Source: Acidimicrobiia bacterium
GTDB lineage: Bacteria; Actinomycetota; Acidimicrobiia; Spongiisociales; UBA11373
DNA: 64,000 nucleotides
Direction: 5' to 3'
Assembly (NCBI GenBank): GCA_016932695.1
Contig: JAFGCH010000081.1
Location: forward strand, 15,404-79,403
Positions 1,044-42,225 of the stretch are shown piece after piece. Position 1 is the first letter of the stretch. The number at the start of each line of letters is the position of its first letter. The translations under genes and the position numbers were made by a program. The notes under the pieces are model-generated. The model was not told where the DNA came from. It did not search any database and saw only the letters and a list, made by a program, of their open reading frames with translations.

Positions 1044-1973
1044 TCAGCGACTGCGGCGGTCCACCTTGTAGCAGGAGCCGGCCTCGTGCTTGGCGTGCTC
1101 CTTCATCTCTGAGGCCACCGCCGACGCTTCCCACTCGCTGGTGAACGTTCGCCGCAGGTTGGTGGCAACGCCCATGGAGATGGAGACGATGGGGAACGCA
1201 TGGCGCTCTCCCCGGCGGTCGATGACCTCCACGAAGCCGCGCAGGGCATCCTGGGGGTCGTAGAAGTCCAGGATGCCATCGTCGAAGCGGTCCACGACCG
1301 TCTTGCAGAAGGTCTCGGCGACGTCGGGCTGCATGACCGCGATGAAGTCGTCCCCGCCTACGTGCCCCACGAAGCACGACGCGTCGTCGGTCTCCACCGC
1401 CGCCTGCACCAGGACGTTGGCGGTGAACTTGATGACGTTGTCACCCCGCATGAAGCCGTAGTGGTCGTTGAAGGCCTTGAAGTTGTCCAGGTCGGCGTGG
1501 ACCACCGCCATAGGCCGCCCGCTGGCCACCCGGCGCTGCAACTCCTCGGCGATGCGGAAGTTCCCCGGCAACGCGGTGAGGGGCGACAGGTCGCGCATTG
1601 CCTTCGAGCGGCGCAGTACCGCGCCCACCCGGGCCACCAGCTCCTCTATGTCGAACGGCTTGGTGATGTAGTCGTCGGCCCCCAGCTCCAGCCCGCGTAC
1701 CCGATCGCGCGAGTCGGTCCGCGCCGTCAGCAGCACCACCGAAACGCTGGACGTGGCCGGGTTCACCCGCAGCCGGCTCAACAGCTCCAGGCCGTCGAGG
1801 TCGGGCATCAGGATGTCGAGCAGGATGAGATCCGGGGGGCGCTCCAGGGCGACACGCAAGCCGGCGATGCCCTCGGTGACCGCGCTCACCTCGTAGCCCT
1901 CGCGCTCGAGGCTCATGCGGACGAAGCGCACGACGTCGGCGTCGTCATCGATGACCAAGATGTGTTCGCTCAT
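1044..1973 (-). CDS. Response regulator with CheY-like receiver domain fused to a GGDEF (diguanylate cyclase-type) domain; signature motif reads GGDDF
   Basis: N-terminal receiver (LVIDDD...LLDILMPDLDG...LLTAR...GADDYITKPF), then D.LT.LPN, ADLDNFKAFNDHYG and HVGGDDFIAV, typical of GGDEF domains. Confidence 0.8.
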   Translation of the reverse strand: MSEHILVIDDDADVVRFVRMSLEREGYEVSAVTEGIAGLRVALERPPDLILLDILMPDLDGLELLSRLRVNPATSSVSVVLLTARTDSRDRVRGLELGADDYITKPFDIEELVARVGAVLRRSKAMRDLSPLTALPGNFRIAEELQRRVASGRPMAVVHADLDNFKAFNDHYGFMRGDNVIKFTANVLVQAAVETDDASCFVGHVGGDDFIAVMQPDVAETFCKTVVDRFDDGILDFYDPQDALRGFVEVIDRRGERHAFPIVSISMGVATNLRRTFTSEWEASAVASEMKEHAKHEAGSCYKVDRRSR

Positions 1974-2686: not shown

Positions 2687-3061
2687 TCACCAGTAGGCGA
2701 AGCGGAGCACCACGGCCGGAATGGCGAGCAGCCAGAACCCGGCGAAGATCAGCAGGCCGCCCCGATCTCGCTTCTCGGCGTAGTAACCCGGCGAGGCAGC
2801 CAGGGAGTAGACGAGGAGCCCGAGGCCGAAGGAGGACAGCACGGCCGACCAGGCGGCAGTGTGATCGGCCAGGATGGCAGCTCCCCCGGCGAGCAACGCC
2901 ACAGCGGTGGCGTATTCGGCGGCGATGTGGAACCAGATGTCGATCCGCCCTGCAGACACCTCGGGCACGCGCCGCGCCGCCAGGGCAACCGTCCAGAAGC
3001 CCCCCATTCCGGCGCCGGTGAGAAGCGACACCACCGCGATGTAGCACAACCCAGGGGGCAT
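2687..3061 (-). CDS. Small hypothetical integral membrane protein
   Basis: 124-aa ORF with 3-4 hydrophobic helices, transcribed divergently from ppk2. I recognise no family. Confidence 0.4.
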   Translation of the reverse strand: MPPGLCYIAVVSLLTGAGMGGFWTVALAARRVPEVSAGRIDIWFHIAAEYATAVALLAGGAAILADHTAAWSAVLSSFGLGLLVYSLAASPGYYAEKRDRGGLLIFAGFWLLAIPAVVLRFAYW

Positions 3062-3138
3062 CGGGGCGACCTCCTTTTCTCGGCAGGCTAGTTCGGGCCG
3101 TTGCCGCCCCGGCCGCCGCCGGGGCCTACGCTGACGCC

Positions 3139-3945
3139 ATGGACCGCTACCGCATCCCGCCCGACACCACCGTGGATCTGGCCGCCTTCGACCCGGGCGA
3201 CACCGCCGGGCTCGAAGAGAAGGAGGCCAAGGAGCGCGTTGCCGCCCTCAACCGCCGCCTGGAGGGCCTCCAGGAGCTGCTCTACGCCGAGGGGAAACAC
3301 CGGGTGCTGGTGGTACTCCAAGCCACCGACACCGGCGGCAAGGACGGGGTCATCCGCCACGTCTTCGACGGGGTCAACCCCCAGGGAGTGAAAGTGGCCT
3401 CGTTCGGACGCCCGACCGAGAAGGCGCTGGCCCACGACTACCTCTGGCGGGTGCACCCGCACACCCCCGGCTCCGGGGAGATGGTGATCTTCAACCGCAG
3501 CCACTACGAGGACGTGCTGGTCGTGAGAGTGCACGGGCTGGTGCCCGAGGGGGTGTGGAGCCGGCGCTATGCCCAGATCAACGCCTGGGAACGCCTCCTG
3601 GCCGAGGAGGGCACCACCATCCTCAAGTTCTTCCTCCACATCTCCCCCGAAGAGCAGGCCGAGCGCCTGGCGGCACGCCGCGACGACCCCGCCAAGCGCT
3701 GGAAGTTCAGCCGGGGCGACCTCGAGGAGCGCGGGCGGTGGAGTGCCTACCGGGCGGCTTACGAGGAGGTCTTGTCCCGCACCAGCACCCCGTGGGCGCC
3801 CTGGTATGTCGTCCCCGCCGACCGCAAATGGTTCCGGAACTTGGTGGTGGCCACGACCCTCGTCGACGCCCTGGAGAGCCTCCACATGGCCTACCCGGAC
3901 CCCGGCGAGGACCTGACCGCCGTGCTCATCCCTCCGGCGGGGTGA
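3139..3945 (+). CDS. ppk2: Polyphosphate kinase 2 family protein (polyphosphate:nucleotide phosphotransferase)
   Basis: Walker A ATDTGGKDG, FNRSHYEDVLVVRVHG and PWYVVPADRKWFRN are characteristic of single-domain PPK2. It is one of the few plus-strand genes. Confidence 0.85.
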   Translation: MDRYRIPPDTTVDLAAFDPGDTAGLEEKEAKERVAALNRRLEGLQELLYAEGKHRVLVVLQATDTGGKDGVIRHVFDGVNPQGVKVASFGRPTEKALAHDYLWRVHPHTPGSGEMVIFNRSHYEDVLVVRVHGLVPEGVWSRRYAQINAWERLLAEEGTTILKFFLHISPEEQAERLAARRDDPAKRWKFSRGDLEERGRWSAYRAAYEEVLSRTSTPWAPWYVVPADRKWFRNLVVATTLVDALESLHMAYPDPGEDLTAVLIPPAG

Positions 3946-4852
3946 ACCGCGCCGGCTGCAGCCTCCGGCCCCGCATCCACTCCCCCGCCGTCATCCGTCG
4001 CCGTCCCTCCGGCTGGACTTCGAGGAGTTCCACTGCGCCGTCGGGGACCCCCAGCAGCACCTTGCCCTCCACCGCCTCCACCCGGCCGGGCTCGGGGCCC
4101 GGGTTCTCGACCGCCCGGGCTCCCCACAGCTTCAGGCGTACCCCGTCCAGTTCGGTCCAGGCGCCGGGCTTCGGATCGAAAGCCCGCACCGCCCGCACCA
4201 CCGCCTCACACCGGTGGCGGGTGGGGTCCACGAAAGCCTCCTCCGCTCGTACCCGAGCGGCGGCGGTGACCCCGGCGGCCGGCTGAGGCCGCGGGGCCAC
4301 TTCGCCGGCAACGTACGCCGGAAGGTGCGCCGCCAGCATCGCCGCCCCGATCTCCGCCAGGCGGGCGGCGAGCTCACCTGCGGTCTCCTCGGGCCCCACG
4401 CCCGTCGGATGCATGGCCAGCACCGGGCCCGTGTCCATGCCGGCATCCAACTGCATGAGGGTGACTCCGGTCAGTTCGTCGCCGGCCAGGATCGCCCTGA
4501 CCACCGGGCTCGCCCCGCGCCATCGGGGCAGCAGGGAGAAGTGCACGTTGACGAACCCGCAGCGCGGCGCCTCGAGCAGCTCGGACGGCAGGATCTGCCC
4601 GTAGGCCACCACCACGGCCACATCGACGGCCAGGGATCGCAGCCTTTCGAGGTCCTGGGCGGCGCGCCCCGGCTGGCTCACCGGCAGGCCCAGCGCGGCA
4701 GCAGCCTCCTTCACCGGCGGCGCCTGGGGCCGGCCGGATCGGCCCCGCGCCTTGTCGGGCCGGGTGGTCACCAGGGCCACCTCCGCCATCTGCACCAGCG
4801 CCCGCAACGACGGCACCGCCTCCACCGGGGTGCCGTAGAAGACCGCTCTCAC
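3926..4852 (-). CDS. fmt: Methionyl-tRNA formyltransferase; the GTG start at 4850-4852 overlaps the def stop (GTGA)
   Basis: VRAVFYGTP...VVAYGQILP...NVHFSLLPRWRGASPV..AI..GD..TGVTLMQLDAGMDTGP are Fmt motifs, and the gene is adjacent to def. Confidence 0.85.
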   Translation of the reverse strand: MRAVFYGTPVEAVPSLRALVQMAEVALVTTRPDKARGRSGRPQAPPVKEAAAALGLPVSQPGRAAQDLERLRSLAVDVAVVVAYGQILPSELLEAPRCGFVNVHFSLLPRWRGASPVVRAILAGDELTGVTLMQLDAGMDTGPVLAMHPTGVGPEETAGELAARLAEIGAAMLAAHLPAYVAGEVAPRPQPAAGVTAAARVRAEEAFVDPTRHRCEAVVRAVRAFDPKPGAWTELDGVRLKLWGARAVENPGPEPGRVEAVEGKVLLGVPDGAVELLEVQPEGRRRMTAGEWMRGRRLQPARFTPPEG

Positions 4853-5352
4853 CGACCTTCCCCTCGCAGCATCTCCTCCTCGCGGATCTCCTTCAACGCC
4901 TGCTTGCGGGCCCGCCGGGGCAGGCGCTCCAGCAGGAGGATGCCGCCGATGTGATCGATCTCGTGCTGCAGCACCCGCCCGAGGAGTTCCTCGCCGGCGT
5001 ACTCGATCTCCTTGCCGGCCAGGTTCAGCCCCCGGGCCCGGGCAAACCCGGGACGGCGGACCGGCCAGTAGCGCCCCGGCACCGACAGGCACCCTTCATC
5101 GAAGGTCCACGATCCGGAGGTCTCCAACAGCACCGGGTTGATCAAGTGATGCGGGCCGTCCCCGATGTCGAAGATCACCACCTGCAGGGCGACGCCTATC
5201 TGTGGCGCCGCCAGGCCCACCCCGGGGGCGCGGTACATCGTCTCGAACATGTCGTCGACCAGGCGCCGGATGTCCCCGTCGATTCGGGCCACCGGCGCCG
5301 CCGGGGTGCGCAGGACGGGGTCCGGGTACACCCGGATGGGGAAGATGGCCAA
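4849..5352 (-). CDS. def: Peptide deformylase
   Basis: GVGLAAPQIG, EGCLSVPG and QHEIDHIGG are the three PDF motifs. Confidence 0.9.
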   Translation of the reverse strand: MAIFPIRVYPDPVLRTPAAPVARIDGDIRRLVDDMFETMYRAPGVGLAAPQIGVALQVVIFDIGDGPHHLINPVLLETSGSWTFDEGCLSVPGRYWPVRRPGFARARGLNLAGKEIEYAGEELLGRVLQHEIDHIGGILLLERLPRRARKQALKEIREEEMLRGEGR

Positions 5353-5388
5353 GGTGCCTCCAGTGCCTCTTCGGCAGACTAGCCCCGG

Positions 5389-7149
5389 TCAGAGGTCGAT
5401 CGGGTCGGCGTCCACCCGCACCCGGGCCCCGGCGTCCCGCCAGTCCTGGACCAGGCGTCGCAGCATCAGACGGGGGCCGTGGAGATCGCGCCCTTGGAGC
5501 AGCCACCTCAGCCGATCGCCCCGTTCCGCCGGCCCGTGCACCTCGGCCCGCCCGGCGACGGCCGACCGCAGGGAGGCGTCGGCGCCCTCCGGCACCCCGG
5601 CCGCCTCCACCACCAGGATCTCCCCCGCCGGTGGGAAGCCGACCGCCGCCCGCCGCGCCATTTCGTCTCCCAGCAGCGGCAGCGGGTCCCCGCGGCGCAG
5701 GGCGCCCAGTGCCGGATGGGTCGGGTCGGCGGTCTGCACCAAGGCCCGGCGCCCCCGCCCCGGGCCGGCGGCAGCGGCAACCCGGGCCAGCAGGCGCAAG
5801 CCATCTTCCACGGCGCGGTAGTGCGGGGCACGCAGCAGTCCGTCGGCGTCTACCACTACCCCCAGGTCCACGGGCTGCAGCCCGGCGAGGTCGCGTTCGG
5901 TGCCGACGACCACGTTCCTGCCGGTCCCCGCCTCTCCGACGGCCCCCCGCCCGAGGAAGCCGCCCAGCTCGGCCACCAGGCGCCCCACCGCCGCCCCGAG
6001 GGCCTCGAAGCGCCGCCCCCCGCAGCGAAGGCAAGGTCCCAGGGCTACCCCGCAGCGCGGGCAGGATCCGCCGGCATCGGGACGAGCCCCGCACCGGGGG
6101 CAGACGCGCAGGGTACGGCAGCTCGTGCAGCGCAGAGCCGGGGCCCGGGTCTCGGCGAGCACGAAGGCCCGCTTTCCCTCGGCCACCACCGCCCGGAGGG
6201 CCTGCCGGCCCCGTTCGCCGATCAACCCGCTCCCGGGCGGCTCGGCAGTGCGATCCACCACCTCGACCAGCCCCCAGAGGCGCCCGCCGTAACGCACCAG
6301 CGCCGGGGCGCGCTCCAGCGCCTCGCCGGTGGGGACCGCCCCACAGAGCACCAGGGGGAAGCGCTGCACCGCCGAACGGCGCCACAGCAGGTCGCGAGCG
6401 TGGAGAGTGGGAGTAGCCCGATCCTTCAGGCCCCGACGGCCTTCGTCGACCACCACCGCCAGGGCCAGGCCGCCCACCGGCCACAGCGCCACTTCCCTGG
6501 TGCCCACCACGAGGCGTCCGGGTTGAGCGGCTGCCTCCCAAGCCGCGGTCAGGGCCGCACCCCCATCTTCGGCAAGGACGGCCACCACCCTCGCCCCGAA
6601 GCGCTCCCCCAGGTGCGCCGCCAGCGAGCGAGCCTCGGCCACCGCGGGCACCACCACCAGCACGCTGCGCCCCGACGCCAGGACCGGTGCCGCCAAGCCG
6701 GCCAGCGGCGCCGCCCAGGGGCCCGGCCCCAGCAGGTATCGGGCCCCCAGGTGCTCCCCGGCCGCGGCCGCCGCCGACACCTCGGGCAGCACCGAAGCCC
6801 CGCACGATGGCACCGGGGGCAACTCCCCTCCCCGTCGGCGCCGCGGCAAGTTGGGCGGGGCCGCCTTCGCCAGCAGCACCGGCAGCGGGGCCACGTAGTG
6901 CGTGGCCGCCCAGCGCATCACCTCGAGCAGGCTGCGGTCGAAAACCGGCATCTCGCCGCGCCGGGAGACAACGGGCCGCAGTCCCGGCCGGGCTGCCTCT
7001 CCTGTGGCAACGACGAAGCCACCCACCCTCCTGCCCCCGAGGGGGATGCGCACCATCGCCCCTACCTCGACGTCGATGCCCGCGGGTACCTCATAAGCGA
7101 AGCCGTCGTCGACGGCGAAGGTAGGGAGATCCGGCACCACCCGGGCCAC
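5389..7149 (-). CDS. priA: Primosomal protein N' (PriA) with degenerate helicase motifs; the ORF-track N-terminus is over-extended, and the likely start is the GTG at 7147-7149
   Basis: The N-terminal 3'-DNA-binding region (VPDLPTFAVDDGFAYEVPAGIDVEVGAMVRIPLGGRRVGGFVV) and the Cys-rich zinc module (CTSCRTLRVCPRCG...CPRCG...CLRCGG) are present. Walker A and DEEH positions read LLGPGPWAAPLAG and VVVDEGRRG. Confidence 0.75.
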   Translation of the reverse strand: MARVVPDLPTFAVDDGFAYEVPAGIDVEVGAMVRIPLGGRRVGGFVVATGEAARPGLRPVVSRRGEMPVFDRSLLEVMRWAATHYVAPLPVLLAKAAPPNLPRRRRGGELPPVPSCGASVLPEVSAAAAAGEHLGARYLLGPGPWAAPLAGLAAPVLASGRSVLVVVPAVAEARSLAAHLGERFGARVVAVLAEDGGAALTAAWEAAAQPGRLVVGTREVALWPVGGLALAVVVDEGRRGLKDRATPTLHARDLLWRRSAVQRFPLVLCGAVPTGEALERAPALVRYGGRLWGLVEVVDRTAEPPGSGLIGERGRQALRAVVAEGKRAFVLAETRAPALRCTSCRTLRVCPRCGARPDAGGSCPRCGVALGPCLRCGGRRFEALGAAVGRLVAELGGFLGRGAVGEAGTGRNVVVGTERDLAGLQPVDLGVVVDADGLLRAPHYRAVEDGLRLLARVAAAAGPGRGRRALVQTADPTHPALGALRRGDPLPLLGDEMARRAAVGFPPAGEILVVEAAGVPEGADASLRSAVAGRAEVHGPAERGDRLRWLLQGRDLHGPRLMLRRLVQDWRDAGARVRVDADPIDL

Positions 7150-7160
7150 GAGGGGCGCGC

Positions 7161-8351
7161 TCAGCGTGTGCCCCGGCTCCTCAGTTCGGCGATCCGCTCC
7201 CAGAGGCGGGCCGCCACCCGGCGCTTGGGAAGGCACTCCCAGGCCTCCACCGTGCCGTCGGGAAGGATCAGTGCGACCTGGTTGGTCTCGGTGCCGAAGC
7301 CCGAGCCGGCGGCCGTGACGTCGTTGGCCACGAGCAGATCCACTCCCTTTGAAGCCGCCTTGGCCACCGCCCCTTCCGCCGGACCCGTCTCGGCGGCGAA
7401 GCCCACCAGGAACGGCCGGTGAGCCAGCGCGGCCACCCCGGCCAGGATGTCCGGGGTGGGCTCCAGGGCCAGAGCCGGCGGGCCGTCGGCACGGCGCAGC
7501 TTGGTCGCGGCCGGCCGCGCCGGGCGGAAGTCCGCCACGGCCGCGGCCAACACTGCCACATCGCAGGCCTCGGCTCGGCCCCACACCGCCCGGGCCATCT
7601 CCTCGGCCGTCTCCACCCGCACCACCTCGAGCCCGGGGATCTCCGGTGGCTCGGCGGCAGTGATCAAGGTCACCGCGGCGCCGCGCGCCGCCGCCTCCTC
7701 GGCTACTGCATGGCCCATCTTCCCCGACGAGCGGTTCCCCAGGTAGCGCACCGGGTCTACGGGCTCGCGCGTCCCTCCCGCCGTCACCAGCACCCGCCAG
7801 CCGGCCAGGGCGCCCCCGCCCAGGGCCTGCTCCAGCGCGGCGAAGACCTCTTCGGGCTCCGCCATGCGCCCGGGCCCCACGTCGCCCCCGGCCAGCGGCC
7901 CGCTGGCCGGGCCCACGATGATGACCCCATCGGCCAGCAGCGCCGCCAGGTTGCGCTGGGTCGCGGGATGCGACCACATTTCCGAATGCATCGCCGGCGC
8001 CACCAGCACCGGGGCCCGGGTGGCCAGGACTACCGCCGAAAGCAGATCCTCACTGAGCCCCTGGGCCAGGCGGGACATGGTGGCGGCCGTCGCCGGGGCG
8101 ATGCACACCGCGTCAGCCCAGCGCGCCAGGTCGAGGTGGGGGGCCGGCGAGGCCTCTCCCCAGAAGTCGCGTTCGGGAGCCGTGCCGGTGATGCCCGCCA
8201 GGGTCGCCGGACCCAGGAAGTGGTGGGCCGAGTCGGTCAGCACCGTGCGCACCGCAGCCCCCGCCTGGACCAGCAGGCGGGCGAGGTGGGCGCTCTTGTA
8301 GGCGGCGACTCCCCCGGTGATGCCCAGGACGATGCGCCGGCCGGCGAGCAT
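7161..8351 (-). CDS. coaBC: Bifunctional phosphopantothenoylcysteine decarboxylase / phosphopantothenate-cysteine ligase
   Basis: RIVLGITGGVAAYKS at the N-terminus (flavoprotein domain), the C-terminal CoaB domain, and 396 aa in length. Confidence 0.9.
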   Translation of the reverse strand: MLAGRRIVLGITGGVAAYKSAHLARLLVQAGAAVRTVLTDSAHHFLGPATLAGITGTAPERDFWGEASPAPHLDLARWADAVCIAPATAATMSRLAQGLSEDLLSAVVLATRAPVLVAPAMHSEMWSHPATQRNLAALLADGVIIVGPASGPLAGGDVGPGRMAEPEEVFAALEQALGGGALAGWRVLVTAGGTREPVDPVRYLGNRSSGKMGHAVAEEAAARGAAVTLITAAEPPEIPGLEVVRVETAEEMARAVWGRAEACDVAVLAAAVADFRPARPAATKLRRADGPPALALEPTPDILAGVAALAHRPFLVGFAAETGPAEGAVAKAASKGVDLLVANDVTAAGSGFGTETNQVALILPDGTVEAWECLPKRRVAARLWERIAELRSRGTR

Positions 8352-18866: not shown

Positions 18867-19508
18867 CTACTTGATGATCGACTGCCCCACCGCCAGGGTG
18901 AACACGCTGTCGCGGTACATGAACACTCCGCTGCTGGTGGCCAGGCTGATCACCTTGAAGTCGGTGGCGAAGGTGTCCCCGACGCCGACGGTGTAGGTCT
19001 GGCCGTCCACGGTCAGCACCGCCTTCTTCACTCCGCCTTCGTCGCGGATCTCCAAGAGCGACACCCGCTTCCCGCTCGGCTGGTCGCCGGTGGTGCTGGT
19101 GGTGCTGCCTCCGGAGGTCGTGGAGGTAGAGGTGGAGCTGGTGGAGGACGTGGTGCCGCCGCCGGTCGTGCTGCTGGTGGAACCGCCGGTGGTACTCGTA
19201 GTGGAACCATCCCCGCCGGTCGTCGTGGAGCCGTCGGGGAGGGTGGTGCTCGTCGGGCTGGTGACCAGAGGAGCGAAGGGATCGCGCGGTTGAGCGACGC
19301 GGAAGCCCCCCGCCGCCGGAATCGTACCGGCGGAGCCGCTCGGGCCCGCCGTCCCCGGGTCCGGGGCCCCGGGCAGACGCCCGTCTCCTCCCAGGGAAAG
19401 CACTCCCGAGGAGGCCATCAACCACACCGAGGTCCCCGCCGTTCCCACCAGCAGCACGGCCACCAGGATCGCTACGAAAGTGCGCCGCAAGGTCCCGCGT
19501 CCCATGTC
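18867..19508 (-). CDS. PilP-like pilus assembly protein: N-terminal signal/anchor, RDPF motif, Ser/Thr/Gly-rich linker and C-terminal beta domain; the real start is the internal MGRGTLRR
   Basis: MGRGTLRRTFVAILVAVLLVG (TM), QPRDPFAPL (PilP-type motif), about 70 aa of S/T/G repeats, then a conserved-looking about 70-aa C-terminal domain. It sits immediately downstream of pilO. Confidence 0.5.
   Translation of the reverse strand, partial: DMGRGTLRRTFVAILVAVLLVGTAGTSVWLMASSGVLSLGGDGRLPGAPDPGTAGPSGSAGTIPAAGGFRVAQPRDPFAPLVTSPTSTTLPDGSTTTGGDGSTTSTTGGSTSSTTGGGTTSSTSSTSTSTTSGGSTTSTTGDQPSGKRVSLLEIRDEGGVKKAVLTVDGQTYTVGVGDTFATDFKVISLATSSGVFMYRDSVFTLAVGQSIIK
19090..19290 (-). repeat. Low-complexity coding repeat (Ser/Thr/Gly-rich linker of the PilP-like protein)
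   Basis: Degenerate repeats of ggt/gga/gtg...acc triplets on the plus strand encode TTSTTGGSTSSTTGGG... in the minus frame. Confidence 0.5.
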
Positions 19509-20187
19509 AGGCCTCCGCGCTCGGGCCGGTGGTCGGCGGCACGGTGGAAGGGACGATCGTCGTCTGCGCCTCCGGCGCCATCTCTTGCTCGCCCGTGCCC
19601 TCACCGGTGTTGCCGGCGCCCCCGTCGTCCGGGAGGGGTTCCAGCGGCACCAGGTCGGCGAGGGTGTACAGCCGCAAGCTGAGGCTCGCCGACAGCGTGG
19701 TCGCCCCGGTCTCATCCTGGCCCGACGACACGGCGATGGCGTCCACCCGCACCAGCCGATCCATGTCCATGATCCCGAAGAGGAAGCCCAGCACCTCGAA
19801 GAAGTCCCCGTCGATGGTGGTAGCCACCGTGATCTGCCGCAGCTCGGAACCGGTGATCGCCACCGGCATGGCCGGCGCCAGGTTCAATAGCTGCACTCCG
19901 GTGGTGTCACAGAGGGCATACACGTCGTCGATGAACTCATCGAGTCGGGGTTGCGCCGGGATCAGGCTCTCCATCTGCCCGATGCCGGCTAGGTACTCGA
20001 CTTCGGCGTCCCGGATGGCCTGCAGCTGGGTCACCTGGGCCCGCAGCGCGGCTTCCTGCTGCTGCGCCGCGTCCAGGTCGTCGCGCGCCTCGGCGATGCG
20101 GCCGTTGCGCGGCGAGATGAGGAAGAACCACCAGGCCACCGCCAGCACCAGCGCCAAAACCAAGGTGAGGATCACCCAGCGGCGCAT
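19507..20187 (-). CDS. pilO: Type IV pilus assembly protein PilO
   Basis: N-terminal TM (WVILTLVLALVLAVAWWFF), coiled-coil (LDAAQQQEAALRAQVTQLQAI), then a PilO-type globular domain. The pilM-pilN-pilO order matches. Confidence 0.65.
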   Translation of the reverse strand: MRRWVILTLVLALVLAVAWWFFLISPRNGRIAEARDDLDAAQQQEAALRAQVTQLQAIRDAEVEYLAGIGQMESLIPAQPRLDEFIDDVYALCDTTGVQLLNLAPAMPVAITGSELRQITVATTIDGDFFEVLGFLFGIMDMDRLVRVDAIAVSSGQDETGATTLSASLSLRLYTLADLVPLEPLPDDGGAGNTGEGTGEQEMAPEAQTTIVPSTVPPTTGPSAEA

Positions 20188-20188
20188 G

Positions 20189-20803
20189 TCAGGGCACCTC
20201 CGGGATCAGCTCCTGGGCGCGGTCGGTGACCGCCCCCGCAGTGAGCGCCGCCGAGGAGCTGAAGTTGACCACCACCTCGTCGCCGATGGCGCTCTCCGAA
20301 GCCATACTCACCCAGGGCCCGGTGACACCGGCGAACCCGCCCGCGCCCAGGGTGCGCAGCCATTCCGAAACGTCCGGGAACTCGAAGGCCACTCCGGTGA
20401 AGGCGACCTGGCCCACCACCCCGCCGATCTGGCCCTCGATGATGCTCCCGTTGAACGACTCCATCCACACCCGCTCGGGAAGAAGCCGGGAGAGGTCGTT
20501 GAGGAAGATGCCCCAGTCGACGTCGTTGGCCAGCGCTTCCTGCACCAAGCCCGCCTTCGAGCGAAACTCCGCCTGCAATGCGGCGGCCTCCGCCAGTGAG
20601 GCCACCTCCTGCTCCAGGCCGGCGTTGACCTCCTGCTGCAGCTCGACGTCGGCCCGCGCTGCCGAAACACGGGTGTTCCAGTAGAACACCCCGGCCACCA
20701 GCACGAGCACGTACGCGATGGCGGCGAGTATCAACAGCCCAATGAGCCGCCGACGGGTTCTCTCTTCGGCGACCTCGGGGGGAAGCAGGTTGATGGGGCG
20801 CAC
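20189..20803 (-). CDS. pilN: Type IV pilus assembly protein PilN
   Basis: MRPINLLPPEV...RR then a TM segment, which is the hallmark PilN N-terminus (INLLP). It is about 200 aa and lies between pilM and pilO. Confidence 0.7.
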   Translation of the reverse strand: MRPINLLPPEVAEERTRRRLIGLLILAAIAYVLVLVAGVFYWNTRVSAARADVELQQEVNAGLEQEVASLAEAAALQAEFRSKAGLVQEALANDVDWGIFLNDLSRLLPERVWMESFNGSIIEGQIGGVVGQVAFTGVAFEFPDVSEWLRTLGAGGFAGVTGPWVSMASESAIGDEVVVNFSSSAALTAGAVTDRAQELIPEVP

Positions 20804-20806
20804 GCG

Positions 20807-21919
20807 TCAGTCCTCCCGAGCCACGTGGGCGAAGCGATTGCCGGGTGGGACCACGTAGCTCCCCCACAACGCCAGGCCCACCGCCGCCGGCAGCACGGGC
20901 TGCAGGTCGAGCAGCTGCGATTCGGTCATGTGCACCCGACCCACACTGACGTGGTCCAGGACCCGGACCGGCTCCACGCGCGTGCCCAGCGCCCGCGCCA
21001 CCCGGTTGGCCAGATGGGGAAGCCGCGCCCCGTTCCCCGACACCAGCAGGCGCTCCAGCGAATGCTCCCCCGCCTGGGTCAGGTAGTAGTTCACCGAGCC
21101 GCGGATCTCCTCGATCAGGCCGTCGGCCGTGCGGGTGAGCAGCCGGCGCAGCGCCGCTTGCTCGTCGTCGCCTTCGGGCAGGCCGGAGGGCACCACTCCC
21201 GCCACTCGCTTCTTCTCCTCGGCGTCCTCCCGACTGAGCGACGCCCCGGCCATGAGCGCTTCGGTGAACTGGTTTCCCCCGGTGGGCAGGATCCGGACGA
21301 AGCGGGTGATACCGCCGCGCACGACGGCGATCTGGGACATAGATGCCCCGATATCCAGGATTCCTTGGGGCCCGTCACCCCCCAGGGTGAGATCCGCCCC
21401 GAACGCCGCCCGCACTAAGCCGAAGGTCTGCAGGTCGATCGAGAGCACTTGCAGCCCGACCTTGCGCGCCACCCCCACCAGGGACTCCACCATCTCGCGC
21501 TGGGCCGCCACCACCAGTATGGAAAGCATGAGGTCGCCGTCGGGAGTGCCGAACTCCTCGAGCGGCACGTAGTCGAGCAGCGCCTCCTCGACCGGGATCG
21601 GGATGGCGTCCTGGACCTGGTACGGCAGGGCCTCGAGCAGCTCCTCCTCCTCCAGGTGAGGCACGTCGACCTGCCGGACGATCACCCGCTGGTTGGCGAT
21701 GCCCACCACAACCCGCTTGCGCGGCAGGCGATGGCGCTTCCACAGCGCGCTCACTGCCTCGGTAACGGCGCCCTGATCGACGACGTCGCCGCCCTGGACC
21801 GCTCCCGGCGGCAGCGGCATCTCGACGAACCGGCGCAGCACCGGAGTGGGCTTGCCGGTTTCGACTACGGCGGCCCGCACCGCCTCCGAGCCAATGTCGA
21901 GGCCGACCGCGATCGGCAT
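20807..21919 (-). CDS. pilM: Type IV pilus assembly ATPase-like protein PilM (actin fold); the real start is the internal MPIAVGLDIG
   Basis: VGLDIGSEAVRAAVV..., ...ILDIGASMSQIAVV.GG, N.YL and LLVSGNGARLP are PilM/FtsA-like motifs. It is followed by pilN. Confidence 0.8.
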   Translation of the reverse strand: MPIAVGLDIGSEAVRAAVVETGKPTPVLRRFVEMPLPPGAVQGGDVVDQGAVTEAVSALWKRHRLPRKRVVVGIANQRVIVRQVDVPHLEEEELLEALPYQVQDAIPIPVEEALLDYVPLEEFGTPDGDLMLSILVVAAQREMVESLVGVARKVGLQVLSIDLQTFGLVRAAFGADLTLGGDGPQGILDIGASMSQIAVVRGGITRFVRILPTGGNQFTEALMAGASLSREDAEEKKRVAGVVPSGLPEGDDEQAALRRLLTRTADGLIEEIRGSVNYYLTQAGEHSLERLLVSGNGARLPHLANRVARALGTRVEPVRVLDHVSVGRVHMTESQLLDLQPVLPAAVGLALWGSYVVPPGNRFAHVARED

Positions 21920-22080
21920 CACTCCTCCGTTGTGGCCGCCCGGGGCGGCTCCTCGCTCGATCACACCGTGGTAACTACACGGGTGTCAGGCAAAAGGCTA
22001 CACAACGGACCGCGCGCCTCCAAGGATCTGGGCTGATCCTGCCGAGCGCGGGCCGCGCGAGGACCGCGCGCCTAAGGTGG

Positions 22081-22851
22081 TCAGCCCAGGTACCAGCCGG
22101 CGATGGTCTCCCCCCAAGCCAGGGCCAGCGCGGCGCCGACGACCATAGCCGGGCCGAAAGGGATCGCATCCTTGCGCCCGGCCCGCCGGGTGACGAGCAG
22201 GCCCGCCGCCACCAGCCCTCCTACGGCAAAGGCGGCGAACGCCCCCACCGCCAGCACGCCCCAGGATCGATAGGCCAGCACCGCCCCCAGGAGCAGGCCC
22301 AGTTTCACGTCGCCGAACCCGAAGCCGCCCCGCGCCGCCAGGGCCACCAGGAAGAGCAGGGCGAAGTACGCCGCCGCTCCCCCGGCGGAGCGCGCCCAGG
22401 CCATGGGTTCTCCGTCCAGGAAAGCCGCCGCCCCCAGCAGCACCAGCGTCACCGCCGCCCCCGGCAGCAGGATGCGATCGGGGATCCGCTTGACGTCGAG
22501 ATCCGTCAGCGTCAGGGCGATGGCGACTGCGGCCGCCCACCAAAACGCCGGCAAGGCCCACGACGGCCCGAGCAGAAGGGCCAGGCCGGCGAAGGCAGCC
22601 CCCGTGCCGGCTTCCACGAACGGATAGCGCACCGAGATGCCGCTCCCGCAATCGCGGCACCGGCCTCGCAGCAAGAGCCAGGACAGCACCGGGATGTTGT
22701 CCCGGGCCCGGATCTCATGGCCGCACGCCGGGCAAGCCGACCGGGGGCGCACCACCGACTTCCGCAGGGGGACGCGATAGGCGACCACGTTGACGAACGA
22801 CCCGGCCACCAGGCCGAGCACCGCACCCACGATTGCCAGCCAACCTGTCAC
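22081..22851 (-). CDS. pilD: Prepilin peptidase (A24 family)
   Basis: The Cys-rich N-terminal zinc module (CPACG...CRDCG) follows N-terminal TMs, with multi-pass membrane helices and conserved Asp positions. It aligns to PilD/TadV. Confidence 0.85.
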   Translation of the reverse strand: MTGWLAIVGAVLGLVAGSFVNVVAYRVPLRKSVVRPRSACPACGHEIRARDNIPVLSWLLLRGRCRDCGSGISVRYPFVEAGTGAAFAGLALLLGPSWALPAFWWAAAVAIALTLTDLDVKRIPDRILLPGAAVTLVLLGAAAFLDGEPMAWARSAGGAAAYFALLFLVALAARGGFGFGDVKLGLLLGAVLAYRSWGVLAVGAFAAFAVGGLVAAGLLVTRRAGRKDAIPFGPAMVVGAALALAWGETIAGWYLG

Positions 22852-22964
22852 CGCCGGTCACCTCCTGCTCCGCTCGCCGGCTCGAGGCCCCCGTCTCACA
22901 GCATCGGACGTGCGAAGGCGAAGGTGAAGGGGTTGATGCCCGGCGGCCTGCCACGCCGGCCGGG

Positions 22965-23432
22965 TCAGAAGCCGCCCTGGTGGTACCCGGCGGGAATCAC
23001 CGCCGGGCAGTCGGCACCGGAGAGGTCCGTGGCCCCGTAGTGAGTTCCCAGTGCGGCGCTGTCCCAAATGGAGAAGACCCGTCCCGAAGCCGAGTCTCGC
23101 GTCAGGCACACGACCTGCGGGTCGGCGTCGTTCAGGTCCACGTACACCCCATCGGCCGGGTCCAGGCTCAGCCAGGAACCCGGGCGCACCGCCCGCAGAA
23201 CACCCCAATCGGCGGTGTAGGCCCCCTCCTCCAGCCACACCATCTTCTCCGCCAGCAGGATGTTGCGCAGATCGGTATGGGCGGCTCGGTCCTGGGCCGC
23301 GTGGCGAACGCCGAGGAAGTAGGGAATGGCCACGGCCAGCAGCACCGCCAGGATGGCCGCCACCATCATCAGCTCGATCAGGGTGAACCCCACATCACCC
23401 CTCGGCCGGTGTTTCACGAGACCCCTCCACAA
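22965..23432 (-). CDS. Type IV pilin (paralog 1)
   Basis: Class III signal ...RGDVG/FTLIELMMVAAILAVLLAVAIP, and a C-terminal disulfide-bonded region (C...C). Confidence 0.8.
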   Translation of the reverse strand: MWRGLVKHRPRGDVGFTLIELMMVAAILAVLLAVAIPYFLGVRHAAQDRAAHTDLRNILLAEKMVWLEEGAYTADWGVLRAVRPGSWLSLDPADGVYVDLNDADPQVVCLTRDSASGRVFSIWDSAALGTHYGATDLSGADCPAVIPAGYHQGGF

Positions 23433-23439
23433 GCGGGCT

Positions 23440-23465
23440 GGGGGCGGGCCGTCGGCCCGCCCCCA
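23440..23465 (-). terminator. Perfect 11-bp GC hairpin (GGGGGCGGGCC gac GGCCCGCCCCC) immediately 3' of pilin paralog 2
   Basis: Inverted repeat seen directly in the sequence. There is no U-tract, which is common for high-GC terminators. Confidence 0.45.
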
Positions 23466-23490
23466 GCAACTCGGTAGACGTTGGGTGTGC

Positions 23491-23955
23491 TTACCAGCCG
23501 CCCTGGACGTAGCCGGCCGGGGCAGCCGCCGGGCAGTCCGCGGCCGACAGGTCGGTGGCGCCGTAGAAGGTGCCCGCCGTCGCGCTCTCCCAGATGGAGA
23601 AGGTGCTCCCCGAATCGGAATCGCGCACCAGGCAGACGATGTCCGCGCTGGCGGCGTTCAGGTCCAGGAAGACACCGTCCGCCGGGTCGGCGGCGATCAC
23701 CGCGTTCGGCTCCAGAGCAGTGATGTCGCCCGCGGTCTGGGTGTAGTCGCCGTCTTCCAGCCAGAAGGCCTTCTCGGCGAGCAGCACGTTGCGGACCTCG
23801 CTCTGGGCCGACCGGTCCTGAGCGGACTTGCGGAAGCCGAGGAACGAAGGGATGGCAATGGCGATGAGGACTGCAATGATCATCACCACGACCATGAGCT
23901 CGATGAGCGTGAAGCCCTCGCTCCCGGCCAGCCGCTTGCGGATGGCCTTGGTCAT
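23491..23955 (-). CDS. Type IV pilin (paralog 2, candidate major pilin)
   Basis: MTKAIRKRLAGSEG/FTLIELMVVVMIIAVLIAIAIP, a strong SD (GAGGAGG) 8 nt upstream of the ATG, and a stable terminator hairpin downstream. Confidence 0.8.
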   Translation of the reverse strand: MTKAIRKRLAGSEGFTLIELMVVVMIIAVLIAIAIPSFLGFRKSAQDRSAQSEVRNVLLAEKAFWLEDGDYTQTAGDITALEPNAVIAADPADGVFLDLNAASADIVCLVRDSDSGSTFSIWESATAGTFYGATDLSAADCPAAAPAGYVQGGW

Positions 23956-24066
23956 CTTGGAAACCTCCTCAGGTTTCTCGGTCCCGGACCGGGGGTTCCC
24001 GATCCGCAGGCTTTATCGGCCGCGCCGCGACGCTTCTTGAGCGGGTTGCGCACCCCCGAACGCGCC

Positions 24067-24091
24067 GCAGCCGGGCTCCCGGCCCGGCTGC
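24067..24091 (-). terminator. GC-rich hairpin (GCAGCCGGGC ...GCCCGGCUGC) 3' of pilC and 5' of the pilin gene promoter region
   Basis: Inverted repeat seen in the sequence, with no U-tract. Confidence 0.35.
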
Positions 24092-24110
24092 GGTTGCCTC
24101 GATGCTCCGC

Positions 24111-25343
24111 TTACCGCTGGATCAGGTTGGCGATGCTGAACATCGGCAGATACAGCGAGATGAGGATGCCGCCCACGCCCACGCCCATCACCACGATCAG
24201 GAAGGGTTCGATGAGGCTGGTGAGGGCGTTCACCGAGTCGTCGACCTCCTGGTCGTAGAAGTCCGCCACCTTGGCCAGCATGGCGTCGAGGGCGCCAGTC
24301 TCCTCCCCCACCGCCATCATGTGGGTCACCATCGGGGGGAAGACCTCATGGCGCGCCAGAGGGCCGGCCAGCGACTCGCCTCGCTTCACCGACTCCTGCA
24401 CGTCCGCCAGGGCCTCGGAGACCACCGCGTTGCCCGCGGTGTCCGCCACGATGTCCAGCGCCTGGAGCACCGGCACCCCGGTCCGGCTCAACACCGACAT
24501 GGTGCGGGCGAAGCGGCTGATGGCGATCTTCTGCACCAGCTTGCCGAAGACGGGGAAGCGCAGCTTCAGGCGATCCCACTTGGCGCGACCCGCAGGAGTG
24601 CGGATCCAACGCTTGAAGCCCACGACCGTGCCGATGGTCAGCAACGCCAGCAGCCACCAGAACTTGGTCAGCATCCCCGAGAGGGTCATGAGCATCTGCG
24701 TCGGCGCCGGCAGGGTGCCCCCCAACTCGTCGTACATCCTCTTGAAGATCGGCACGATGAAAAGCAGCATCGCGCTCAGGATGAGCACGAGCAGCCCGAG
24801 GACCACCACCGGGTAGGCCATAGCCGACTTCACCTTGGAGCGCAGCCGCACCCCGGACTCCAGGGTGTCCGCCAGCCGGATCAGAGTCTCGTCGAGGGCG
24901 CCGCCCACCTCCCCCGCCTGCACCATGGCCACGTAGAGATGCCCGAAGACCTTCGGGTGGCTGGCCAGGCTGGCCGACAGACTGGACCCCTGCTCCACCC
25001 GGGTGCGGACGTCGCCGATCACCCCGGCCAGCGTGGGATTGCGGCTCTGCTCCTGCAGGACGGTGAGGGCGCGCACCAGGGTCAGCCCGGAGTTCACCAT
25101 CGTGGCCAGCTGACGGCTGAAGACCGCGACCTCCTTGGCCTTGACCTTCTTCTTCATCCCGGGGAGCTTGACCTCCTTGTCGAGGGTGCCCACCCGGCGC
25201 TCGGCGATCTTGAGGGGCACGAAGCCCTTGTCACGGAGGGTCTTGGCCACCGCAGCCGACGAGGCGGCCTCCATCTGGCCCGTCTGGACGCCGCCCGCCC
25301 GGTCGCGCACCCTGTACTCGAAGGTCATCGTGGGATTGCTCAC
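24111..25343 (-). CDS. pilC: Type IV pilus inner-membrane platform protein PilC (GspF family)
   Basis: 410 aa with two GspF repeats and 3-4 TMs; ...VNALTSLIEPFLIVVMGVGVGGILISLYLPMF... is the typical PilC C-terminus. Confidence 0.85.
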   Translation of the reverse strand: MSNPTMTFEYRVRDRAGGVQTGQMEAASSAAVAKTLRDKGFVPLKIAERRVGTLDKEVKLPGMKKKVKAKEVAVFSRQLATMVNSGLTLVRALTVLQEQSRNPTLAGVIGDVRTRVEQGSSLSASLASHPKVFGHLYVAMVQAGEVGGALDETLIRLADTLESGVRLRSKVKSAMAYPVVVLGLLVLILSAMLLFIVPIFKRMYDELGGTLPAPTQMLMTLSGMLTKFWWLLALLTIGTVVGFKRWIRTPAGRAKWDRLKLRFPVFGKLVQKIAISRFARTMSVLSRTGVPVLQALDIVADTAGNAVVSEALADVQESVKRGESLAGPLARHEVFPPMVTHMMAVGEETGALDAMLAKVADFYDQEVDDSVNALTSLIEPFLIVVMGVGVGGILISLYLPMFSIANLIQR

Positions 25344-26962
25344 AGCCTCCCCCTCCCCAGGAGATCCATCAGTTCTTCGGCATTCGAGGCCCGTTCTGTA
25401 GCCGCGGCCACCGAGATCTGGCCCGCCCGGACCAGATGGGCCAGCGACTGCTCCATGGTGTGCATGCCGTGCTTGCCCCCGGCCTGCATCGCGGTGCGGA
25501 TCTGGTGCACCTTGCCCTCCCGTATCAGGTTTCGCACCGCCGGGGTGGCCACCAGCACCTCCACCGCGGCCACTCGTCCCTTGCCGTTCATAGTCGGCAG
25601 CAGCTGCTGGCAGACGACACCCTGCAGCGACCCGGCCAGCTGCACCCGCACCTGCTGCTGCTGGTGGGAGGGGAACACATCGATCACCCGCTGCACCGTG
25701 CCCGGGGCGTCCTGGGTGTGCAGGGTGGCGAAGACCAGATGCCCGGTTTCAGCGGCGGTCAGGGCAGTGGCCATGGTCTCGAGGTCGCGCAGCTCGCCCA
25801 CCAGAATGACGTCGGGGTCCTGACGGAGGGCGTGCTTGAGGGCGCTGGCGAAACTCACCGTGTCCGAACCCACCTCGCGCTGGTTCACCACGGCCATCTT
25901 GTGGCGGTGCATGTACTCGATGGGATCCTCCACCGTCATCACGTGCACCGCTCGGGTCCGGTTGATCAGGTCGATCAGGGAAGCCAGCGTGGTGGACTTG
26001 CCCTGACCCGTGGCCCCCGTCACCAGCACCAGGCCCCGGCTCATGCGAGTGAACTCCGCCACCACCGGGGGCATACCCAGCTCTTCGAGAGACATGATGT
26101 GCTCCGGGAGGGCTCGCAGCACCGCCCCGACGGACCCGCGCTGGAAGTAGACGTTGACCCGGAAGCGGCCCCGCCCCGCCACCGGGTGGGAGCAGTCGAG
26201 TTCGCGCTTCTCCTCGAGTTCCTCACGCTGGCGTCCGCTCAAGATGCCGTAGATCAGGGTGCGGAGCGTGCCGGGCATCAGCCGCGCGTACCCCTCGATC
26301 GGCTGGATTTCGCCGTCGATCCGTCGCAACGGCGGTGACCCCGCGGTCAGGTGGAGATCAGAGGAGCCCGAGTCGAGCACCAGCTCGAGCAGCTGGTTCA
26401 GGTGGTATCCCGGGTCCTCTCCCTCAACCGGGGCATCGCCCAGCCGCAGTTCCGGGCTCTCCGAGCCGCGCCGGGCCGGACTGCCGTTGGCCGCCGCCGG
26501 CCGGACCGCCGAGCTCCCCGGCCCGTAGACCCGGGCCAGGACGGCCTCTAGGCCCGCCCGGGGTGCCAGCGCGGGCACCACCCGGCACCGGCTCAGCTTC
26601 TCCACCAGAGACAGCTTGGCCCGGTTCATGGGATCGGCCAGGGCGACCACCAGGCCGTCGGGCCCCTCGCGCCGCAGCGGCAGAGCTTGCTGCCCGGTGG
26701 CGGTGGCCGGGTCGAGGCGACCGAGCGCCTCGGCATCCGGCTCCCATCCGTTCGTAGGGTCGAAGTACTCGATACCCAAGCGCTCGGCGGCCACCCGAAG
26801 CACTTCCTCCGGGGGTACGCGTCCCTCCCCGAGCAGCAACCGCGTGGGGTGGGCCCCGGCGTCCTGCGCCCGAGCCACGATGTGCTCCAGGGCCGATGGG
26901 GCGAGCACGCCCCGGTCCACCAGGAGCTGCCCCAACTGCCGGAAGGCCTTCGGATCGGGCAT
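25340..26962 (-). CDS. pilT: PilT-type twitching/retraction ATPase with an extra N-terminal T2SE_N/MshEN-like domain; the real start is the internal MPDPKAF, and its ATG overlaps the pilB stop
   Basis: PilT core: DLHLTAGSPPLRRIDGE, RFRVNVYFQRGSVGAVLRALP, Walker A GATGQGKSTT, Walker B ILVGELRD and AVRNLIREGK, with no tetracysteine. The N-terminal about 190 aa resemble the GspE N-domain (LGQLLVDRGVL...ALEHIV..AQ). Confidence 0.8.
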   Translation of the reverse strand: MPDPKAFRQLGQLLVDRGVLAPSALEHIVARAQDAGAHPTRLLLGEGRVPPEEVLRVAAERLGIEYFDPTNGWEPDAEALGRLDPATATGQQALPLRREGPDGLVVALADPMNRAKLSLVEKLSRCRVVPALAPRAGLEAVLARVYGPGSSAVRPAAANGSPARRGSESPELRLGDAPVEGEDPGYHLNQLLELVLDSGSSDLHLTAGSPPLRRIDGEIQPIEGYARLMPGTLRTLIYGILSGRQREELEEKRELDCSHPVAGRGRFRVNVYFQRGSVGAVLRALPEHIMSLEELGMPPVVAEFTRMSRGLVLVTGATGQGKSTTLASLIDLINRTRAVHVMTVEDPIEYMHRHKMAVVNQREVGSDTVSFASALKHALRQDPDVILVGELRDLETMATALTAAETGHLVFATLHTQDAPGTVQRVIDVFPSHQQQQVRVQLAGSLQGVVCQQLLPTMNGKGRVAAVEVLVATPAVRNLIREGKVHQIRTAMQAGGKHGMHTMEQSLAHLVRAGQISVAAATERASNAEELMDLLGRGRL

Positions 26963-26964
26963 GC

Positions 26965-28635: not shown

Positions 28636-28808
28636 CGAGGGCTCCTCCGCAGTGGTCGACTACGGGGAGTGTCGGCAGGCGGCAGAGAGCCCTTGAGCCG
28701 GTTCGGGATCGGCGAGTCGTGCCCCCGGCGCGACCGGAAGCCGCGATACGCGCCCGCAACGCATCTCGACACGCCTGCCTCGGCAGCGTGATCTCAGCGC
28801 GCCCGGCG

Positions 28809-33825: not shown

Positions 33826-35165
33826 TCACTCCCTCGGCGGACGCCCCACCCGGCGGTCCACTTCGGCCAGGCCCTCCGCCCGGGCCGCCTCCTCCCCCTC
33901 TCTCCCCGGCCGGTAGAGGATCCGGCCGACGGCGGCGTCCGGCAGGTACTGCTGGGCCACGACGGCTCCCGGGAAGTCGTGGGGGTAGCGATAGCCCACC
34001 CCGTGCCCCAGGGCGGCCGCACCGCGATAGCCGGTGCCCCGCAGATGGGGAGGTACCGCTGCCCCGGGGGTGTCCTCGACCGCCCGGCGCGCCGCTTCCA
34101 TGGTCCGAGCGACCGAGTTCGACTTGGGCGCCGTCGCCAGGTACAGCGCCGCTTCGTGCAGGGCATAGGCCGCCTCGGGCAGGCCGACGAACGCCAAGGC
34201 GTGGACCGCGGCCACCGCCACGCCCAGGGCCGCCGGATCGGCCAAGCCGACGTCCTCCGCGGCCAGGATCACCATCCGCCGGGCGATGAACTCGGGGTCC
34301 TCGCCGGCGGTGAGCATGGTCTCCAGCCAATAGGCGGCAGCATCGGGATCGGAGCCTCGCAGGCTCTTGATGAAGGCCGAGATCACATCGAAGTGCTGAT
34401 CGCCCGCCTTGTCGTAGCGGACCACCCGGCGCTGCAAGGCCTCCTCGATCTCGGCCGTACCGATCCGGGCCCGCCCCCGGCCCGAGGCGAGCAGCGCCGC
34501 CACCTCCAGGGTGTTGTACGCCAGGCGGGCGTCGCCTCCCACCCGCTCCGCCAGGAGGTCCCGGGCGTCGTCCTCGATGCCCGCCACGATCCCCGCCAGG
34601 CCCCTTTCGGCGTCCTGCACCGCCCGATCGATGAGCACCGCCACCTCCGCAGGAGCCAGCGGCTCCAGCCGGAACAGGGTGGCCCGGCTGATGAGAGGCG
34701 AGTTCACCTCGAAGAAGGGGTTCTCGGTGGTGGCCCCAATCAGGGTCACGGTGCCGTGCTCCACCCCGGGCAGCAGGGCGTCTTGCTGGGCTTTCGAGAA
34801 GCGGTGGATCTCATCCAGGAAGAGCACCGTACGCGCGCCGCCGTCCTCGAGGCGGCGCCCCGCCGTGGCGAGCACCTCCCGCACCTCCTTGACCCCGGCG
34901 GTGGTGGCGGAGAGAGCCTCGAAAGCGGCTCCGGTGGCCGCGGCCACTAGAAAGGCCAAGGTGGTCTTGCCGGTCCCGGGAGGGCCCCAGAGGATCATCG
35001 ACAAGGGCCGGCCGGCGCGCACCATCTCCCCGAATGCCGCCCCCGGGGCGAGCAGGTGCTGCTGCCCCACCACCTCCTCCAAGGCCCGGGGGCGCATACG
35101 GGCGGCCAGCGGCTCGGCTGAGCGGCGCCGCGCCGCCCGCTCCTCGCCGAAAAGGTCCCCGGTGG

Positions 35166-35169
<4 letters not shown>
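33826..35169 (-). CDS. rarA: Replication-associated recombination protein A (AAA+ ATPase RarA/MgsA)
   Basis: LWGPPGTGKTTLA (Walker A), FLDEIHRF (Walker B/sensor), and the C-terminal MgsA domain. Confidence 0.85.
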
Positions 35170-36943
<1,774 letters not shown>

Positions 36944-42218: not shown

Positions 42219-42225
42219 GATCGCC

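Follow-up and report, generated by a model that had tools for sequence, protein, structure and literature searches.

How could a PriA protein act at stalled replication forks once its motifs for ATP binding and hydrolysis have degenerated? The question is raised by a 64,000-nt stretch of DNA from an Acidimicrobiia bacterium (GenBank assembly GCA_016932695.1, contig JAFGCH010000081.1, positions 15,404 to 79,403; hereafter the window). Its priA gene (5389..7149, minus strand, as are all priA features given below) encodes 586 amino acids (aa), from a GTG start at 7149 to a TGA stop at 5389-5391. An initial annotation had described degenerate Walker A and DEEH motifs and a SAT-like GAVPTGE in this protein, and had predicted a PriA that is ATPase- and helicase-dead and could still recognize forks. 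This prediction emerged as the best-supported reading of sequence and structural model. Most likely, the window PriA is the chromosomal orthologue in a divergent short form shared with Mycobacterium tuberculosis, and it would serve as an ATP-independent fork-recognition platform.

Nucleotide-binding motifs and domain architecture

Motif register was established with a HMMER alignment to the E. coli and Klebsiella PriA structures and with MAFFT alignments, and both agree. The two degenerate motifs of the initial annotation were recovered at aa 139-151 and 232-240. The first, the Walker A remnant LLGPGPWAAPLAG (6697..6735), lies opposite GSGKTE; where canonical proteins read GVTGSGKTE, the window protein reads LLGPGP-WAA (GPGPW), a loop that is about three residues shorter and contains neither Lys nor Thr. 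The second, the motif II remnant VVVDEGRRG (6430..6456), lies opposite DEEH and belongs to a clade consensus vvv.EGRRgmK. Only here did the earlier register need correction by one residue, as DEEH pairs with V-D-E-G in both aligners and not with D-E-G-R. With this pairing the window protein keeps an hhhhDE-like string, and D235-E236 stand at the end of a strand (residues 228-234) in the AlphaFold2 model. Across the clade, residue 235 varies between D, G and E, and most relatives have Gly or Glu.

The remaining motifs have changed as well. Motif III (GSATP) is replaced by LCGAVPTGE (aa 268-276; 6322..6348), so that SATP has become GAVP; the SAT-like GAVPTGE was found at aa 270-276 (nt 6322-6342), just outside the interval 6425-6740 to which it had been assigned. 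In motif V, VVVGTERDLAG (aa 413-423; 5881..5913) aligns its GTERDLAG in place of GTQMLAKG, and in motif VI, ARVAAAAGPGRGRRA (aa 455-469; 5743..5787), QVAGRAGR has turned into RVAAAAGPGRGR. Thus, none of the hallmarks of an active superfamily 2 helicase (Walker A GxGK[ST], DExH/D, SAT or QxxGRxGR) is present at the aligned positions, and both Walker A and Walker B are non-consensus, the sequence pattern by which the PriA pseudohelicase of Deinococcus radiodurans is recognized. An intact GKT or DExH elsewhere in priA was sought as a refutation of the initial annotation, and a six-frame search of the gene found neither GK[ST] nor DExH. As the two aligners, the structural match and this search agree, mis-registration and a hidden motif are ruled out. 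P-loops elsewhere in the window, in gmk (GPSGAGKS), rarA (GPPGTGKT) and two PilB/PilT ATPases (PilB, GPTGSGKT), served as controls and are normal.

Directly after the motif II remnant, segment LKDRATPTLHARD (aa 241-253; 6391..6429) is homologous to the aromatic-rich loop region YKQQEGWRYHARD of E. coli PriA, for the role of which we rely on PMC5778457. The segment retains the Lys and HARD and has lost the aromatics; K242, P247, T248 and R252 are invariant in 22 relatives.

Despite the loss of these motifs, the protein is recognizable as PriA. The PriA 3′ DNA-binding domain (3′BD; Pfam PF17764) is its sole Pfam match (aa 4-98; 6856..7140; E 8.7e-15, profile positions 2-96 of 96) and its best-conserved domain, whereas DEAD, ResIII and Helicase_C, all of which detect E. 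coli PriA, do not match it. NCBIfam PriA models match with E 1e-35 to 1e-9, but all scores stay far under the curated cut-offs (at best 119.9 bits versus 921, and 108 versus 230 for TIGR00595; likewise for PRK14873), so that the protein is homologous to, yet outside, every curated PriA equivalog model. A phmmer search of PDB sequences returned PriA entries only (E 3e-27), and over residues 16-515 the window protein aligns collinearly with that of E. coli.

The AlphaFold2 model, based on the 22 relatives, is confident (predicted local distance difference test, pLDDT, 88.8; predicted template modelling score, pTM, 0.88), and in Foldseek it matches E. coli and Klebsiella PriA with E 1e-36 to 1e-28 and template modelling (TM) scores of 0.72-0.80. 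Mfd and UvrB are the next families, at E ~1e-8 only. The model, the structural matches and the cysteine pattern together reveal two RecA-like lobes, a Cys-rich two-zinc module inserted in lobe 2 and a C-terminal domain. The zinc module (aa 341-376; 6022..6129) has the pattern CxxC-x5-CxxC-x9-CxxC-x6-CxxC and aligns to the Cys-rich region C436 to C479 of E. coli PriA; its eight cysteines, from C341 to C376 in four CxxC pairs, are invariant in the 22 relatives. The 3′BD and the Cys4/Cys4 module are therefore intact, as had been proposed. The C-terminal domain (aa 506-586; 5392..5634), delimited by the secondary structure of the model, the alignment and the full-length structural match, ends with the PriA-typical VDxDP.

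Compared with canonical PriA of E. coli and K. pneumoniae (PDB 4nl4, 6dgd, 8fak; TM 0.80 for 8fak), the fold and the order of domains are the same. Both forms share the 3′BD, the RecA-like lobes, the lobe-2 Cys-rich insert, the C-terminal domain, and the GTR, HARD and DxD...[FY]R[AS]xE motifs; in our alignments the signatures kept in the window protein comprise GTR, K...HARD, DxD...YRAxE, VDxDP and the eight cysteines. In contrast, the window PriA has shorter Cys-rich loops, no aromatics in the aromatic-rich loop and no insert of about 20 residues before motif V, and it lacks Walker A, DEEH, SAT, GTQM..KG, QxxGRxGR and the winged helix. In the alignment the winged-helix domain (E. coli residues about 110-180) is missing, and the ~35 residues between 3′BD and lobe 1 do not hold a circularly permuted one; Pfam PriA-like_WH matches E. 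coli PriA but neither the window protein nor its relatives. A fast-evolving linker (aa 99-138; 6736-6855) joins 3′BD to lobe 1 instead. In agreement with this alignment, the top Foldseek match of the natural protein is 6dcr (E 1e-36), an E. coli PriA engineered to lack the winged helix. M. tuberculosis PriA and every other P-loop-less relative share this deletion.

Within the 3′BD, one position differs between lineages. The window protein reads FAY at aa 17-19 (7093-7101), and F-[AS]-Y is found across its clade; E. coli and M. tuberculosis have F-D-Y, and two canonical PriAs have Y-T-Y. The Asp of F-D-Y contacts the 3′ end in E. coli PriA, and its loss in F-A-Y may be compensated by an invariant VDD just upstream.

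Distribution in Acidimicrobiia and M. tuberculosis

Is this form an oddity of one genome? The closest relatives in GTDB species genomes all belong to uncultured Acidimicrobiia or Actinomycetota metagenome-assembled genomes, at 81% down to 47% identity, and the motif loss is common to all 198 Acidimicrobiia relatives examined. A HMMER scan of 1.84 billion cluster representatives yielded 7844 matches, 123 of them at E<=1e-30. We aligned 98 full-length representatives of 50% identity clusters, after two apparently chimeric sequences had been dropped. Only five of the 98 carry GSGKT, DEEH, SATP, GTQM and QVAGRAGR, with lengths of 705-813 aa, whereas approximately 93 (about 500-705 aa) have neither GKT nor a winged helix. 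Among ten representatives from intermediate clades, none scored above any NCBIfam equivalog cut-off.

A protein search with the N-terminus of M. tuberculosis PriA returned only fragments of at most 200 aa and no named full-length actinobacterial PriA. The M. tuberculosis protein (655 aa) was therefore rebuilt from a frameshifted assembly locus (L084, GCA_001396615.1). The frameshift splits priA (4001-5967 of this locus) into calls of 114 and 554 aa and could reflect either an error in sequencing or a genuine lesion; PF27106 is listed for the C-terminal piece and not recorded for the Acidimicrobiia-type proteins. In the rebuilt protein, ALPGELWAD, VWADADD and GGYART stand at the positions of Walker A, motif II and motif III; it has the eight cysteines and lacks the winged helix. 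It is collinear with the window PriA (28% identity over 574 columns, E 6e-16), and a second, Mycobacterium-like locus (L085) agrees at the Walker A position. Rv1402 of M. tuberculosis thus resembles the window PriA in its 3′BD, its eight cysteines, its VDxDP end and the absence of winged helix, GKT, DEEH and SAT. The remnants themselves differ (GPGPW, VDEG and GAVPT in the window; PGELW, WADA and GYART in M. tuberculosis), as does the length (586 versus 655 aa). UniProt flags the M. tuberculosis entry as one without recognizable helicase domains.

A rough neighbour-joining tree groups all P-loop-less PriAs, that of M. tuberculosis among them, in a single clade separate from the canonical proteins. 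A large sub-clade (P0174-P0268, ~500-640 aa) is P-loop-less as well and keeps a DEH(D) motif II, an SPxPS motif III and GTEAVLHR at motif V; one of its members shows an actinobacterial gene order including mIHF. Since motifs II and III are kept where the P-loop is gone, the tree, crude as it is, suggests a stepwise decay that started with Walker A and reached the other motifs later, lineage by lineage. Judged from these sequences, the motif loss is lineage-wide and probably phylum-wide, and the window PriA, normal for its lineage, typifies a form of PriA that has been little studied.

Selection on priA and competing explanations for the ATP cleft

The priA reading frame is intact in 80 loci of GTDB species and in 120 protein clusters. 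Ratios of nonsynonymous to synonymous substitution rates (dN/dS) were obtained by the Nei-Gojobori method against four relatives and are approximate, as dS is near saturation. Lobe 1 and lobe 2 with the zinc module both gave 0.14-0.27, equal to the values of the 3′BD and the C-terminal domain; only linker residues 101-134 are relaxed (dN/dS ~0.5). The gene is under purifying selection, and a pseudogene is ruled out by these ratios and by the conservation across the 198 sequences. Entropy analysis of the same 198 sequences gave the lowest mean for the 3′BD (1.13), and a value of 2.03 for the Walker A remnant compared with a core mean of 1.53. Being more variable than average, the remnant is a decayed loop. 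The motifs have thus been lost while the parts that recognize DNA (3′BD, zinc module, GTR motif, K...HARD segment and C-terminal domain) are kept under the same purifying selection, and a PriA that is ATPase-dead yet binds forks is the natural reading.

Several observations weigh against this reading. The hhhhDE string AVVVDE is retained in the window protein, and the motif II and V remnants EGRRgmK and VGTERDL are well conserved in the 198 sequences, so that the former cleft has not just decayed and might accommodate a ligand. For E. coli PriA, an additional nucleotide site of weaker affinity has been reported (PMC5778457). A second, canonical PriA may be encoded elsewhere in the genome, of which 64 kb are visible, and genes for the putative partners DnaB, DciA and SSB are not in the window. 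Finally, our literature search (subscription journals were not covered) turned up no biochemistry on any restart PriA from an actinobacterium, much as the initial annotation had described the priA-dependent restart pathway as poorly characterized in the phylum.

A first alternative takes the conserved remnants at face value: the ATP cleft would have been rebuilt, as a salt-bridge latch between the lobes or as a site for DNA, DnaB or DciA, and the protein would be neofunctionalized and not merely inactivated. Conservation of EGRRgmK, VGTERDL and GrGRR across the Acidimicrobiia sequences is consistent with this, as are E236, R238, K242, E418, R419, D420 and R468, which are invariant or nearly so in the 22 diverse relatives. 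However, the five former ATP-site motifs jointly show no significant excess of conservation over random core segments (324/5000 permutations), and the replacements vary by sub-clade (DEHD, DDGN, ADADD, EHS) with no common new motif, so that we regard a rebuilt cleft as unlikely. As a strongly conserved new site it finds little support, given the permutation result and a hypervariable Walker A remnant.

The protein might alternatively still be an NTPase or helicase with a non-canonical nucleotide site, in which, for example, AVVVDE and the Arg-rich EGRR and GRGRR replace the P-loop Lys. The position of the hhhhDE string at the end of strand 228-234, the conservation of the motif II and V remnants in the 198 relatives and the DEH(D) and SPxPS of the sister sub-clade fit such a site. 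Nevertheless, the shortened P-loop without Lys or Ser/Thr is among the most variable stretches of the clade, Asp235 is exchanged for Gly or Glu in most relatives, and the motif VI arginines are out of register. Moreover, in PriA of E. coli and of D. radiodurans a single K-to-R change is enough to abolish the ATPase (PMC4504706), and the helicase families of Pfam miss the window protein while detecting that of E. coli. A working nucleotide site of this kind thus seems very improbable.

Least credible of all is a decaying remnant or assembly artefact with a helicase-active PriA encoded elsewhere: the visible part of the genome is limited and canonical PriAs of 31-35% identity do occur among the database cluster representatives, but the reading frame is intact, dN/dS is about 0.15-0.2 in all domains, no frame hides a motif, the same form and gene neighbourhood recur in 80 species-level genomes and in a related actinobacterial locus (L082), and essentiality is reported for the orthologue in M. 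tuberculosis (PMC5694481).

A candidate route to replication restart and its genomic context

How would an ATP-independent PriA contribute to restart? Without canonical ATP binding or hydrolysis, the window PriA would neither translocate nor unwind. Its 3′BD would cap the leading-strand 3′ end, while the helicase-like core, the zinc module and the C-terminal domain may clamp the fork junction and contact SSB. The protein could then recruit DnaB, the replicative helicase, probably alongside DciA. Any clearing of the lagging strand, which E. coli PriA performs itself, and any remodelling of forks would fall to other motors; genes for RuvAB and RarA lie nearby. No second priA and no priB, priC, dnaT, dciA or dnaB was detected in the 64-kb window, where a few open reading frames (ORFs) fell outside the scans and three large ones had no Pfam match.

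This recruitment model is drawn by likeness to D. radiodurans PriA, which handles forks and DnaB without ATPase, and to the restart-competent K230R variant of E. coli. According to Lopper et al. 2015 (PMC4504706), the D. radiodurans protein is a pseudohelicase: it shows no ATPase or unwinding activity, yet it still binds single-stranded DNA and forks, and it interacts with DnaB. Like the window PriA it is an orthologue with degenerate Walker A and B, and D. radiodurans itself lacks PriB, PriC and DnaT (PMC4504706). In Deinococcus-Thermus, however, the P-loop is still recognizable, with Lys changed to Arg (PMC4504706), whereas the window loop is shortened and unrecognizable, and the window protein has also lost motifs III, V and VI and the winged helix. 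As none of the Walker-less sequences that we aligned has a GxGR[ST] loop, the Deinococcus and actinobacterial losses look independent. The K230R protein, encoded by E. coli priA300, is ATPase- and helicase-dead, assembles primosomes and supports near-normal growth via the PriA-PriB route (PMC5778457). In contrast to the window protein it is a laboratory point mutant, and it needs PriB and DnaT, which are reported missing from Actinomycetota (PMC5694481).

The gene itself sits in a conserved setting. A minus-strand housekeeping run comprises pyrD, pyrF, mIHF, gmk, rpoZ, coaBC, priA, def and fmt, in a window of 68-76% G+C. The coaBC gene (7161..8351, minus strand) lies directly upstream of priA, whose GTG follows 11 nt past the coaBC stop codon, and def (peptide deformylase; 4849..5352, minus strand) directly downstream, followed by fmt. 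The choice of start is based on homologue lengths and alignment starts, and a 91% identical homologue (P0001) equals the window PriA in length. The order gmk-rpoZ-coaBC-priA-def-fmt is also found in L082, and the Walker-less representative P0174 shows pyrD-mIHF-gmk-rpoZ-coaBC-metK-priA-def-fmt, i.e., with metK added. The Mycobacterium-like L085 has coaBC and metK upstream of priA with other genes between, so that the orthologous chromosomal position is shared by the window and L082 and in part by L085. Because of the conserved string pyrD...coaBC-priA-def-fmt, we regard the window gene as the chromosomal priA orthologue. metK follows coaBC in L082 (3740-4936) and in L085 (519-1727); in the window coaBC leads directly to priA (7150-7163), and no metK was found among the window ORFs scanned.

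Further genes of the window include rarA/mgsA with its intact GPPGTGKT (33829-35319, minus strand) and ruvC-ruvA-ruvB (53901-56001, minus strand), which share the core block with priA. RarA and RuvAB are fork-processing ATPases that could, by co-location only, be candidates for the motor activity that PriA lacks. A type IV pilus cluster (~19500-28660, minus strand) between aroC and aroE encodes PilM, PilN, PilO, a prepilin peptidase, a pilin with N-methylation motif, PilC and the two PilB/PilT-type ATPases. Three large minus-strand ORFs (38866-40830, 42229-43818 and 43805-44509), whose coding statistics are good (third-position G+C content of 0.89-0.95), had no Pfam match at E<=1e-5. Their neighbour at 40890-42389 (minus strand) has a pilin-like N-terminal methylation motif, the ORF at 44449-46065 contains a CarboxypepD_reg domain, and together these ORFs may represent a second pilus or surface-protein module. 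In a response regulator-GGDEF fusion (1047-1973, minus strand) the GGDEF part matches only profile positions 6-89 of 161, as would fit a truncated or divergent cyclase domain; the same response-regulator-GGDEF gene is also found downstream of fmt-rsmB-rpe in L082. Among the few plus-strand genes is a PPK2 polyphosphate kinase (3022-3942).

Actinobacterial PriA was described early as "smaller and very divergent" (Rocha et al. 2005, PMC1193525). Lopper et al. presented Deinococcus-Thermus as the exception among PriAs (PMC4504706), and a 2018 review repeats "except in Deinococcus" for PriA helicase activity (PMC5778457). Tuberculosis reviews refer to Rv1402 as an essential "PriA helicase loader" or "primosomal helicase" and note that mycobacteria lack DnaC, DnaT, PriB and PriC (PMC5694481, PMC5720831); one of them, on drug targets, lists M. 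tuberculosis priA as essential and suggests that inhibitors of the PriA ATPase could provide leads for its mycobacterial homologue (PMC5694481).

Our analysis makes it reasonably probable that all Actinomycetota, including M. tuberculosis with its essential priA, restart replication with a winged-helix-less and P-loop-less PriA that is unable to use ATP. Since no PriB, PriC, DnaT or DnaC is known in these organisms, such a PriA would have to act purely as a fork-recognition and recruitment platform. If this is true, the standard view of a PriA helicase activity conserved everywhere "except in Deinococcus" would be wrong for a major phylum, and PriA ATPase inhibitors would be pointless as leads against tuberculosis. 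Restart would then proceed via an undescribed PriA-DnaB(-DciA) hand-off, possibly with a rebuilt inter-lobe site (EGRR/ERD/GRGRR in Acidimicrobiia), which raises the question of how DnaB gets loaded in Actinomycetota, with or without DciA. More generally, the PriA of a major phylum, M. tuberculosis included, appears to be ATPase-dead and to lack the winged helix, a form for which a functional precedent is already known.

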